Shown in pieces: positions 38,741-40,154 of a stretch of 42,480 nucleotides of DNA. A program made the translations under genes and the position numbers. Source of the DNA: Escherichia phage EC22.5-2. The notes below the pieces were generated by a model. It worked only from the letters and a program-made list of their open reading frames with translations. It ran no database searches and was not told where the DNA came from. The stretch lies in the sequence record OR845139; one strand, written 5' to 3'. Position 1 is the first letter of the stretch. Every line of letters starts with the position of its first letter.

Positions 38741-38923
38741 ATGGCAATTGCTAAAGCGACCCAAACACAGCAGCAGGAGCTGCTGCGTCAACTGAACATT
38801 CTGGGTAAGGACCTGTATGCAATCCTTACGCAGCCTCAGAACGTAGCCCAGACTGGTGCAGCGTTCGACACTAAGGTTGCCGCACTGGAAGCTGCTATTG
38901 CAGCGGTGAAGGCGGCTAGCTAA
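38741..38923 (+). CDS. Hypothetical protein (60 aa)
   Basis: ATG 38741 with aggag RBS; ORF-track start 38642 overlaps the upstream gene. Confidence 0.45.
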   Translation: MAIAKATQTQQQELLRQLNILGKDLYAILTQPQNVAQTGAAFDTKVAALEAAIAAVKAAS

Positions 38924-39327
38924 TGCGCAAACTGGTCGCTGGGTTACTGCTCGCGGTTACTCTGACTGGTTGCTCAGCGACCTCTGCACTTACCGGCTTA
39001 GTTGGTTCTAAGCCGGAAGTATCTGCTCAGGTTGGCGCTGAGAATACTAAGCAGATGCTCGGGCTTAATAATAAGGTGGACTCCAGCACCACCAACAAAA
39101 CTGATGTACAGGATTCTAACGTAGGTACACTGGATACTTCTAGCAAGAAGCAAGTGCAGACTATTAGTACAGGCACAATCCAGGCAGAGCGCCTACAAGT
39201 GGTTAACAACGATAGTTACAGCCTTATCCTCGCCGGATTAGCAGGGGCCAGTATTCCTTTGGTCTTCCTAGTGACCATTCTGGTGATTCGTAAGCTGTTT
39301 AGGAAGAAGGGTCAGCAGGATGATTAA
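38923..39327 (+). CDS. Putative unimolecular spanin: lipoprotein signal with lipobox plus C-terminal TM anchor
   Basis: N-terminus MRKLVAGLLLAVTLTGCS (lipobox LTGC); C-terminus LILAGLAGASIPLVFLVTILVIRKLFRKK (TM then basic); sits in lysis cassette. Confidence 0.5.
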   Translation: MRKLVAGLLLAVTLTGCSATSALTGLVGSKPEVSAQVGAENTKQMLGLNNKVDSSTTNKTDVQDSNVGTLDTSSKKQVQTISTGTIQAERLQVVNNDSYSLILAGLAGASIPLVFLVTILVIRKLFRKKGQQDD

Positions 39328-39571
39328 AGTGGGAGATGTAGTTGGGGCAGACCTCGCTACCCGGGCAGGGGCAGCTGTTACTGGTGCTACAGTCTCAGGA
39401 GGCTGGTTGGCAGAGCTAATGAGTTGGAACTGGAGTGTTATCAGCTTTATTACTGCAACGGTATGTGCAGTGCTAACCCTGGCGTGGAATGCGTATTACA
39501 AACGGCGCACGTACAAGCTCCTAGAAGAGCACGCACGTAAGGGGACTATTAAATATGAGTTTAAGGGCTAG
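39320..39571 (+). CDS. Putative holin / pinholin
   Basis: 83 aa; Gly/Ala-rich weakly hydrophobic segment then TM VISFITATVCAVLTLAW and basic C-terminus; directly upstream of endolysin. Confidence 0.5.
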   Translation: MIKVGDVVGADLATRAGAAVTGATVSGGWLAELMSWNWSVISFITATVCAVLTLAWNAYYKRRTYKLLEEHARKGTIKYEFKG

Positions 39572-40154
39572 GGTTATAGCTGCACTCGCCGGGGCCACTA
39601 TGCTCGGCGGGGCTATTACTGAGGTAATCCAGCACAATGAAGGTTTGAGCCTTACAGCCTACAAAGATAGTGCTGGTATCCCTACGATCTGCTACGGGGA
39701 GACAAAGGGTGTCAAAATGGGCCAGAGAGCCACTCTGAGCGACTGTCAGAAGCAACTGATAGAATCAGCAGGGGAACATGCTAAGGCTCTTGACGGGCTT
39801 CCTATGCAGCTCTCTGACGTGGCTCTGATAGGGTCTGTAGACTTCATCTATAACGTAGGCGTAGCCGGCTTCAATGGCAGCGCCGTGAAACGGCACCTCA
39901 AAAACCTTGATTATGCAGCGGCTGGAAAGGCTGTGCTGGACTGGCGTTACATTAGCAAGTACCAGCAGAAGTCCCCAGGCACCGGTTGGGTGTACAGGGG
40001 TGGTAGCCGCTGGACCTTTGACTGCTCTCAGTATATTAATGGGCAGCGCAATAAAGTGTGCTGGGGCCTATGGGAGCGCCGTGTGTGGGAATCTAAGGCT
40101 ATAGGGAACGAATTTAAATCAATGCAAGCAGCGGTTGCTGCTATGCCTAAATAA
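39555..40154 (+). CDS. Endolysin, GH24 lysozyme (T4 lysozyme-like) with N-terminal SAR-type signal anchor
   Basis: Catalytic triad spacing E-8-D-6-T in NEGLSLTAYKDSAGIPTICYGET; N-terminal RARVIAALAGATMLGGAI is hydrophobic and Gly/Ala-rich. Confidence 0.8.
   Translation: MSLRARVIAALAGATMLGGAITEVIQHNEGLSLTAYKDSAGIPTICYGETKGVKMGQRATLSDCQKQLIESAGEHAKALDGLPMQLSDVALIGSVDFIYNVGVAGFNGSAVKRHLKNLDYAAAGKAVLDWRYISKYQQKSPGTGWVYRGGSRWTFDCSQYINGQRNKVCWGLWERRVWESKAIGNEFKSMQAAVAAMPK

Follow-up and report, generated by a model that had tools for sequence, protein, structure and literature searches.

A unimolecular spanin, an S21-like holin and a signal-anchor-release endolysin as the probable lysis module of Escherichia phage EC22.5-2

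Which genes does Escherichia phage EC22.5-2 use to break open its host, and where does that set of genes begin and end? We addressed this in the 42,480-nucleotide stretch of sequence record OR845139 (the window), in which three overlapping open reading frames (ORFs) occupy positions 38923–40154, downstream of the large terminase gene. An earlier reading of these letters alone, referred to here as the sequence-only reading, had proposed the three ORFs as a lysis cassette and suspected that the two genes directly upstream might belong to it, and the coordinates it gave for the three agree exactly with the ORF list. We consider this region to be, very probably, the lysis module of a KP34-like coliphage (Drulisvirus, Autographiviridae), expressed late and made up of a unimolecular spanin (u-spanin), a holin resembling S21 of phage 21 and a signal-anchor-release (SAR) endolysin. 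Homology, motifs, synteny and selection, all read from sequence, support the core of this interpretation, and from the homology we further infer lipidation, SAR release, the size of the holes and the timing. The genes of the module are as follows.

38923–39327, plus strand: unimolecular spanin gene of the T1 gp11 family, 134 amino acids (aa), predicted from the ORF list, T1 gp11 homology and PHROG 1804
39320–39571, plus strand: holin gene, phage 21 S-like (putative pinholin), 83 aa, from PF04971 and PHROG 20
39555–40154, plus strand: SAR-type GH24 endolysin gene, 199 aa, from PF00959 and matches to Protein Data Bank (PDB) entries 3HDE and 4ZPU

Gene order, conservation and selection

The stop codon of the ORF upstream and the start codon of the spanin gene share the sequence TAATG at 38921–38925, the spanin and holin genes overlap by 8 nucleotides (nt; 39320–39327), and the holin and endolysin genes overlap by 17 nt (39555–39571). 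At the DNA level, 38350–40154 was 94.7% identical to Escherichia phages AV102 and Minorna and 80–90% identical to ~240 Klebsiella phages, and the lysis block was matched in 250 phage records, mostly of Klebsiella Drulisvirus. Minorna (record MK598851) is classified as Autographiviridae; Slopekvirinae; Drulisvirus, and its equivalent genes are annotated as unimolecular spanin, holin and endolysin. None of the lysis proteins, nor either of the two upstream ORFs, reached the curated cut-off of an NCBIfam model.

Gene order was surveyed in 80 IMG/VR loci that encode relatives of the spanin, mostly from KP34-like genomes. The arrangement of terminase, (decoration genes), spanin, holin and SAR-type endolysin was present in every KP34-like locus and in every more distant Autographiviridae-type locus (Slopekvirinae) of the survey; in its T1-like contigs the endolysin gene was placed before that of the spanin. 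The ratio of nonsynonymous to synonymous substitution rates (dN/dS), calculated against seven relatives, was 0.03–0.07 for the spanin, 0.04–0.10 for the holin and 0.08–0.19 for the endolysin, which indicates that all three lysis ORFs are functional genes under purifying selection. Since the block is also retained in the 250 phage records and the 80 IMG/VR loci, its presence in the window is not attributable to chance.

Compared with KP34 and other Drulisvirus phages, the window shares the order terminase, two small genes, spanin, holin, endolysin and tailspike, as well as protein lengths of 134, 83 and ~199 aa, and identity to the IMG/VR loci was 93–99% for the spanin, 90–99% for the holin and 81–94% for the endolysin. 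It differs from them by a DNA divergence of ~5–12%, in its Escherichia rather than Klebsiella lineage, in an unrelated downstream tailspike, and in codon 7 of the holin gene, where most Klebsiella relatives have ATG and the window has GTA. A cassette of this composition is ordinary and already known for the genus, having been published in 2015, with placement of its spanin in the gp11 family in 2018. Eriksson et al. (2015; PMC4411677) assigned to the spanin–holin–endolysin cassette of "Kp34likevirus" a u-spanin, a holin of 83 residues that they took for a pinholin, and a SAR endolysin, and contrasted it with the holin, endolysin and Rz/Rz1 order of phiKMV; the T1 gp11-type u-spanin cassette was among the features that defined the KP34-like genus in that year. 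phiKMV is a related T7-like podovirus whose cassette likewise follows the terminase and, as far as it is described by way of PMC4411677 (citing Briers et al. 2011), combines a pinholin (KMV44) and a SAR endolysin (KMV45) in the same logic as the window. However, it has the order holin, endolysin and Rz/Rz1 with a two-component spanin, and shows ~30% similarity over 22% coverage to the KP34 cassette (PMC4411677). A bioRxiv paper on the SAR endolysin of a phage of uropathogenic Escherichia coli was set aside as not relevant, that phage being a siphovirus.

The spanin, endolysin and holin

Within the spanin gene we distinguished the following elements.

38923–38973, plus strand: lipoprotein signal peptide, residues 1–16 (MRKLVAGLLLAVTLTG), and Cys17, predicted to be lipidated, from LPAM_1 and the lipobox LTGC
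39214–39288, plus strand: C-terminal transmembrane domain (TMD), residues 98–122, an uncharged stretch of 25 residues
39289–39324, plus strand: basic tail RKLFRKKGQQDD after the TMD, beginning RKLFRKK and predicted from its sequence to be cytoplasmic

The 134-aa protein had been taken for a u-spanin with an LTGC lipobox and a C-terminal transmembrane helix, and direct comparison with T1 gp11 agrees with this, giving 40% identity over 125 of its 134 residues (E = 6e-26), in addition to a match at 1.5e-50 to PHROG 1804, 'Rz-like spanin'. This identity places it in the T1 gp11 family under the grouping rule of Kongari et al. (2018; PMC6139136), which asks for 40% identity or more across no less than 40% of the length. 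The spanins of KP34, F19 and NTUH-K2044-K1-1 are among the 28 members of this family, and T1 gp11 itself complements the lysis defect of lambda lacking RzRz1 (PMC6139136). We therefore regard the 134-aa protein as a unimolecular spanin homologous to T1 gp11, an assignment that this comparison supports. A homology search with the spanin returned only sequences of 97–100% identity among the 120 matches listed, and conservation was examined in an alignment of 12 diverse homologues drawn from KP34-like, other Slopekvirinae-like and T1-like contigs. Invariant in all 12 were L14, G16, C17, L23, P31, A35–Q44 (AQVGAENTKQ), G47, K51, S73 and A88; the lipobox followed by Cys-Ser, the AQVGAENTKQ block and the C-terminal TMD are the features by which the window protein resembles gp11.

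The protein begins with MRKLVAGLLLAVTLTG, followed directly by C17 and S18, and C17 completes the lipobox LTGC and is the sole cysteine. Pfam LPAM_1 scored 20.3 bits, just at its gathering threshold (GA) of 20. The +2 position is Ser18 (38974–38976), as in the Cys-Ser of T1 gp11, and is without the Asp of a Lol-avoidance signal. Lipoproteins free of Asp at +2 after the lipidated Cys are sorted to the outer membrane, and the spanin would thus be expected to be sorted there too. Its TMD has a mean Kyte–Doolittle hydropathy (KD) of 2.19 and a best 16-residue value of 2.52, and in a single-sequence AlphaFold2 (AF2) model a helix spans residues 96–129, where the predicted local distance difference test score (pLDDT) peaks. 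The mean pLDDT of this model is 57, falling below 50 over residues 28–94, where it predicts only a short helix at 36–44. Between Cys17 and the TMD lie ~80 residues, predicted to be periplasmic, which, if largely extended, would be about long enough to reach across the periplasm.

A single spanin, rather than a separate Rz/Rz1 pair, had also been claimed, and we searched the other frames for an embedded Rz1-like ORF, finding none with a start. In a six-frame lipobox scan of 38300–40200 the LTGC ORF was the only one with a usable start, and a scan of the whole window gave no credible lipoprotein signal or second spanin candidate besides the 134-aa protein. The latter scan did bring up a 35-aa Rz1-like candidate at 16984–17091 with a lipobox-like LVAC, which we rejected as spurious because only 16 mature residues would be left and because it lies in the DNA-metabolism region, inside an endonuclease VII-like gene. 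That gene (16791–17213) carries a CxxC...HCH motif, and the 35-aa LVAC ORF sits in another of its frames.

A lipobox combined with a TMD is by itself not unique to spanins, and for the Drulisvirus 134-aa protein the spanin role is drawn from sequence comparison, so that a different envelope role, such as superinfection exclusion or receptor masking in the manner of T5 Llp or Cor, was also considered. We regard such a role as very improbable given the similarity to an experimentally complementing spanin (T1 gp11; PMC6139136), the constant position of the 134-aa gene next to holin and endolysin genes in KP34-like and T1-like genomes alike, and the lack of any other spanin candidate from the lipobox scans of this genome. 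The 134-aa protein is accordingly kept here as the predicted u-spanin of the module.

The endolysin gene contains two further elements.

39555–39629, plus strand: predicted SAR domain, residues 1–25, reading MSLRAR, VIAALAGATMLGGAIT and EVI, free of Cys, from composition and the R21 alignment
39639–39686, plus strand: catalytic triad of E29 (39639–39641), D38 (39666–39668) and T44 (39684–39686), with codons checked and E-8-D-5-T spacing

Consistent with the proposal that this ORF encodes a GH24 lysozyme with a SAR-like N-terminus, the 199-aa protein matched PF00959 (Phage_lysozyme) at 75 bits, and its best PDB matches using phmmer were 3HDE (1e-9), which we take to be the SAR lysozyme R21 of phage 21, followed by 4ZPU (RrrD). 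The alignment to 3HDE begins at residue 2 of the window protein, which indicates that the similarity to R21 includes the hydrophobic N-terminus; the SAR segment aligns to R21 residues 4–26, and E29, D38 and T44 align with the EG..YKD..G..T motif of R21. R4 and R6 are followed by VIAALAGATMLGGAIT, a run of 16 uncharged residues of which 62% are G/A/S/T, with a KD of 1.82, and the corresponding values for the SAR of RrrD are 24 residues, 62% and 1.39. E29 is found ~6–7 residues past the hydrophobic stretch, as in R21. Cysteines occur only at positions 46, 64, 157 and 169, and as the first 25 residues contain none, the regulatory type would be that of R21 rather than that of P1 Lyz. The protein is thus supported as a SAR-type GH24 endolysin of the R21 type, as predicted from these alignments.

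An in-frame start further upstream was tried and rejected: the ATG present there in Minorna-like relatives is ACG in the window, which makes MSLR the real start, and the MSLR start is also kept in distant relatives and in T1 gp12. Residues ~136–170 (KSPGTGWVYRGGSRWTFDCSQYINGQRNKVC) contain ~25–30 more residues than R21 and RrrD (165 aa), with C157 and C169 among them, and this insertion could be a periplasmic, disulfide-stabilised element.

For the holin, the elements are:

39365–39412, plus strand: weakly hydrophobic segment rich in Gly/Ala/Ser/Thr, residues 16–31 (AGAAVTGATVSGGWLA), a candidate SAR-like TMD1, from composition and the EssD alignment
39425–39499, plus strand: main TMD, residues 36–60, with a best 16-residue KD of 2.31, followed by a basic C-terminus KRRTYK...

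A holin role for the 83-aa protein is well supported by its predicted relationships. It passed PF04971 (bacteriophage P21 holin S, a family of class II holins) with 27.7 bits against a GA of 26 (E = 2.8e-6), matched the holins of PHROG 20 at 3e-16 and, using BLASTP, matched EssD, the S21 homologue of the DLP12 prophage of K-12, at E = 2e-4; its C-terminal half also resembles T1 gp13 (E = 3e-6). For comparison, EssD scored 121 bits with PF04971 and the syntenic holin of IMG/VR locus L077 scored 30 bits over profile positions 2–61. In a multiple alignment S42xxxA46xxxA50, on one face of TMD2, coincided with the GxxxSxxxG positions of EssD/S21 TMD2. The segment of residues 16–31 aligned with EssD TMD1 and has 16 uncharged residues, 75% G/A/S/T and a mean KD of 1.03, the values for EssD TMD1 being 22 residues, 55% and 0.70. 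The sequence-only reading had called this protein pinholin-like, and of that the TMD and the Gly/Ala-rich segment held up, while the segment is short and a two-TMD topology is a candidate only. Because the protein is paired with a SAR endolysin and falls in the P21 holin S family, we infer small (~2 nm) holes that would depolarise the membrane without letting a folded endolysin through, and an S21-type two-TMD topology may apply.

Counterparts of all three proteins exist in T1, as gp11, gp12 and gp13, and the module is therefore homologous to the lysis cassette of T1, with its genes in a permuted order. The window endolysin is 28% identical to gp12, N-terminus included (E = 9e-14), and the order is spanin, holin and endolysin in the window in contrast to holin, endolysin and spanin (genes 13-12-11) in T1. 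Furthermore, T1 is a siphovirus in which the function of gp11 was shown by experiment, whereas the window phage is a T7-like podovirus and its spanin is predicted here from sequence. With phage 21 and DLP12 (S21 68/EssD and R21/RrrD; PDB 3HDF in addition to the two entries above) the window shares PF04971, the small-xxx-small-xxx-small face of TMD2, the E-8-D-5-T triad and a SAR domain free of Cys, with R21 and RrrD as the closest solved relatives of its endolysin. In contrast, phage 21 has a two-component, embedded Rz/Rz1 pair (rzpD/rzoD in DLP12) where the window has a u-spanin, an MKSM-type dual start is absent from the window, the TMD1-like segment and the SAR core are 16 residues each as opposed to 22 and 24, and, by our own reading of the 3HDE alignment, the window endolysin has the extra ~25–30 residues with two Cys near its C-terminus.

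Taken together, the three proteins would act on one layer each of the Gram-negative envelope. The endolysin would be exported by Sec and stay inactive while tethered to the inner membrane by its weakly hydrophobic, Gly/Ala-rich SAR domain, as in the R21 type that has no Cys switch. The S21-like holin would meanwhile build up in the inner membrane and, at a set time, make small lesions that collapse the proton-motive force, which would free and activate the endolysin throughout the periplasm. The spanin, lipidated at Cys17 and sorted to the outer membrane, would have its C-terminal TMD in the inner membrane and its ~80-residue domain threaded through the murein, and once the murein was degraded it would disrupt or fuse the outer membrane, one polypeptide doing the job of Rz and Rz1. 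We propose this single-polypeptide role because it was shown experimentally for the homologue T1 gp11.

Endolysin export and holin topology

Several points weigh against this reading. The literature searched yielded no experiment on a lysis protein from any Drulisvirus, all published assignments having been made in silico (PMC4411677, PMC10194101), and the beta-rich periplasmic fold expected of gp11-family spanins, several beta strands after a short helix, could not be confirmed here because the confidence of the single-sequence AF2 model was too low. The hydrophobic core of the SAR domain has only 16 uncharged residues, and GGA|I is a possible signal peptidase I site. For the holin, the PF04971 match is marginal, 27.7 against 26 bits and confined to profile positions 21–61 of 64, the TMD1-like segment is short at 16 uncharged residues as opposed to 22 in EssD, and TMHMM and TOPCONS gave a single transmembrane helix (TMH) with the N-terminus outside when applied to orthologues (PMC4411677, PMC10194101).

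The features of the endolysin N-terminus would also fit a cleavable Sec signal peptide (an 'SP endolysin') in place of an uncleaved SAR domain. In the sequence, G19 and A20 before I21 resemble the −3/−1 positions of a signal peptidase I site, the core of 16 uncharged residues is shorter than the 24 of RrrD, and the orthologue of phage JKP2 was given a 'signal peptide' call (PMC10194101). However, the phmmer alignment pairs the N-terminus residue by residue with the SAR of R21 (3HDE), the pattern MSL(R/K)N(K)-hydrophobic-GG is kept in distant relatives and T1 gp12, the catalytic Glu stands close behind the hydrophobic stretch as it does in R21, and the gene is paired with that of an S21-family holin. 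Cleavage is thus unlikely, although with the 16-residue core and the G-G-A|I sequence it stays a minor rival to the SAR domain that we prefer.

Published annotations of the holin's topology are inconsistent. Eriksson et al. classed the orthologue as a one-TMD class III holin and yet inferred a pinholin (PMC4411677), and the JKP2 paper named its holin, with one TMH and the N-terminus outside, a P21-like pinholin (PMC10194101). The window protein might accordingly be a single-TMD holin, N-out and C-in, whose Gly/Ala-rich N-terminal 35 residues are periplasmic from the start, and not a two-TMD holin of the S21 type. Consistent with a single TMD, the TMD1-like segment is bounded by R15 and E32, leaving 16 uncharged residues with a mean KD of 1.03, the PF04971 match leaves out profile positions 1–20, a conserved dual-start/antiholin motif is absent, and T1 gp13, which the holin resembles, carries the record note 'single transmembrane domain'; the published predictions of one TMH and a non-cytoplasmic N-terminus (PMC4411677, PMC10194101) point the same way.

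The segment nevertheless aligns with TMD1 of EssD/S21, its 75% G/A/S/T is typical of SAR TMDs, and its hydrophobicity per residue exceeds that of the proven-type TMD1 of EssD; likewise, the PF04971 match of the syntenic L077 holin extends over profile positions 2–61 with 30 bits. In addition, TMDs of the SAR type are known to be missed by standard transmembrane predictors, which counts against a single-TMD reading. We therefore consider the single-TMD topology possible but the less probable one, and retain an S21-like holin as the working assignment. More tentative still is the idea that the holin and its T1 gp13-like relatives form a distinct class of single-TMD, N-out pinholins, in which a Gly/Ala-rich periplasmic N-terminus regulates triggering differently. 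Were this true, the label 'P21-like pinholin' on Drulisvirus holins would be wrong in mechanism and not in cassette role.

We also looked for a dual start of the S21 68/S21 71 type, and found no such motif conserved across the holin relatives. At codon 4 roughly one half of the relatives have GTG and the other half GTA, and codon 7 (39338–39340) is GTA in the window and its Escherichia-phage relatives, with ACG, ACA or TTA in some others. Most of the Klebsiella-phage orthologues among the loci compared (L003–L062) read MIKVGDM, in which codon 7 is ATG, sometimes GTG, and offers a possible second start. A dual-start holin/antiholin pair was rejected for the window, where codon 7 is GTA and codon 4 is not conserved as a start in its GTG form; the codon-7 start of the Klebsiella phages may represent a dual-start holin/antiholin arrangement that is particular to their lineage and lacking in the window. 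A dual start is not a strict requirement of the S21 family, since TMD1 itself acts as an inhibitor in S21.

Neighbouring genes and genome ends

Upstream of the lysis genes lie the following.

36494–38350: terminase large subunit gene, with a Pfam T7-terminase RNaseH-like domain, preceding the small ORFs and lysis genes
38350–38727, plus strand: predicted capsid decoration protein, 125 aa, from matches to PDB 23sf_A and 8eld_M
38741–38923, plus strand: predicted capsid decoration protein, 60 aa, of the helix-turn-helix 'alpha-claw' type, from matches to PDB 23sf_G and 8eld_H

The suggestion that the two genes at 38350–38923 belong to the lysis cassette did not survive comparison with solved structures, as both match capsid decoration chains determined by cryo-electron microscopy and neither contains a TMD or signal sequence. 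The 125-aa protein matched 23sf_A, 'decoration protein gp6' (E = 7.6e-61), and 8eld_M, Gp47 of Shigella phage Buco (HRP29) (E = 5.7e-43), and the 60-aa protein matched 23sf_G, 'decoration protein gp5' (E = 1.4e-28), and 8eld_H, Gp48 (E = 1.7e-19); in both cases the matches span the full length of the solved chains. For the 60-aa ORF the ATG at 38741, which agrees with the solved 60-aa proteins, is a better start than the mechanically assigned GTG at 38642.

Buco, formerly named HRP29 (PMC11522302), has a capsid surface densely decorated by gp47 and gp48 (bioRxiv 10.64898/2026.05.18.726046). The function of homologues of the 60-aa protein in HRP29, PhiM1 and Ar-KM has been described (PMC11440229; bioRxiv 10.64898/2026.05.18.726046), and in PhiM1 helix-turn-helix 'alpha-claw'/'alpha-paw' dimers clamp adjoining capsomers at the two-fold axes (PMC11440229). 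The window pair resembles Gp47/Gp48 of HRP29/Buco and gp6/gp5 of 23sf both in lengths (125 and 60 aa) and in its place directly after the large terminase gene, and no functionally significant difference from the solved decoration proteins was detected. The two upstream ORFs are predicted on this basis to be capsid decoration proteins that share only the late transcript with the lysis genes.

That they are instead additional lysis components, such as an antiholin or lysis regulator, is hardly credible. They do lie on the same strand directly upstream, and the TAATG overlap with the spanin start suggests co-transcription and translational coupling. However, gp6 and gp5 of 23sf and Gp47 and Gp48 of 8ELD are chains built into capsid structures and named decoration proteins, and T1-like phages have homologous lysis genes without these two ORFs. 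A scan of 36000–42480 for sigma-70 promoters and terminators gave counts that were not above those of shuffled sequence, which is compatible with the single late transcript of a T7-like phage and means that the decoration and lysis genes are not separated by any such signal.

The 125-aa gene is variable or replaced in some relatives: in the IMG/VR loci L005, L009, L018, L031–L033, L036, L040, L044, L045, L053, L054, L056, L059 and L061, all from close relatives, it was undetectable, and the 60-aa gene was detected in every one of them. In L018, L044, L053, L054, L056 and L059 the terminase match stops ~2 kb upstream of the 60-aa gene, and this gap suggests either that a gene has been inserted (a homing endonuclease, for instance, or another variant gene) or that the decoration module has been replaced.

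For annotation, these results allow the three lysis genes to be named with confidence and the two genes upstream to be entered as capsid decoration proteins. The label 'hypothetical protein' still stands on both decoration genes in many deposited Drulisvirus genomes, frequently also on the genes for spanin and holin, and in the record of Acinetobacter phage vB_AbaP_Indie one gene of the region is named 'tail protein'. The Acinetobacter host label of that phage is also odd, given that its genome shares ~89% identity with Klebsiella phages.

At the ends of the window, positions 1–77 and 42404–42480 carry the same 77 nt, each copy closing with 11 consecutive G, and the last ~110 nt match the 'right direct repeat' of KP34. 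The copies are either a k-mer overlap that the assembler left on a circularised contig or a portion of the direct terminal repeat, and the unique genome length would be ~42,403 bp. From the identical ends and the match to the KP34 right repeat, the window is a complete genome of ~42.4 kb.

Directly downstream of the endolysin gene is one further gene.

40170–42293, plus strand: tailspike/receptor-binding protein gene, 707 aa, from PHROG tail fibre families

In Minorna the gene at this position is annotated 'pectate lyase superfamily protein'. The window gene had no megablast match among 50,697 phage records and no Pfam match, and its best protein match, in an unannotated record of Escherichia virus TH21, reached only 38% identity, with others below 27%. 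Its guanine-cytosine content is 46.8% as opposed to 51.4% for the genome, and the gene has the look of a receptor-binding or depolymerase module exchanged by horizontal transfer.

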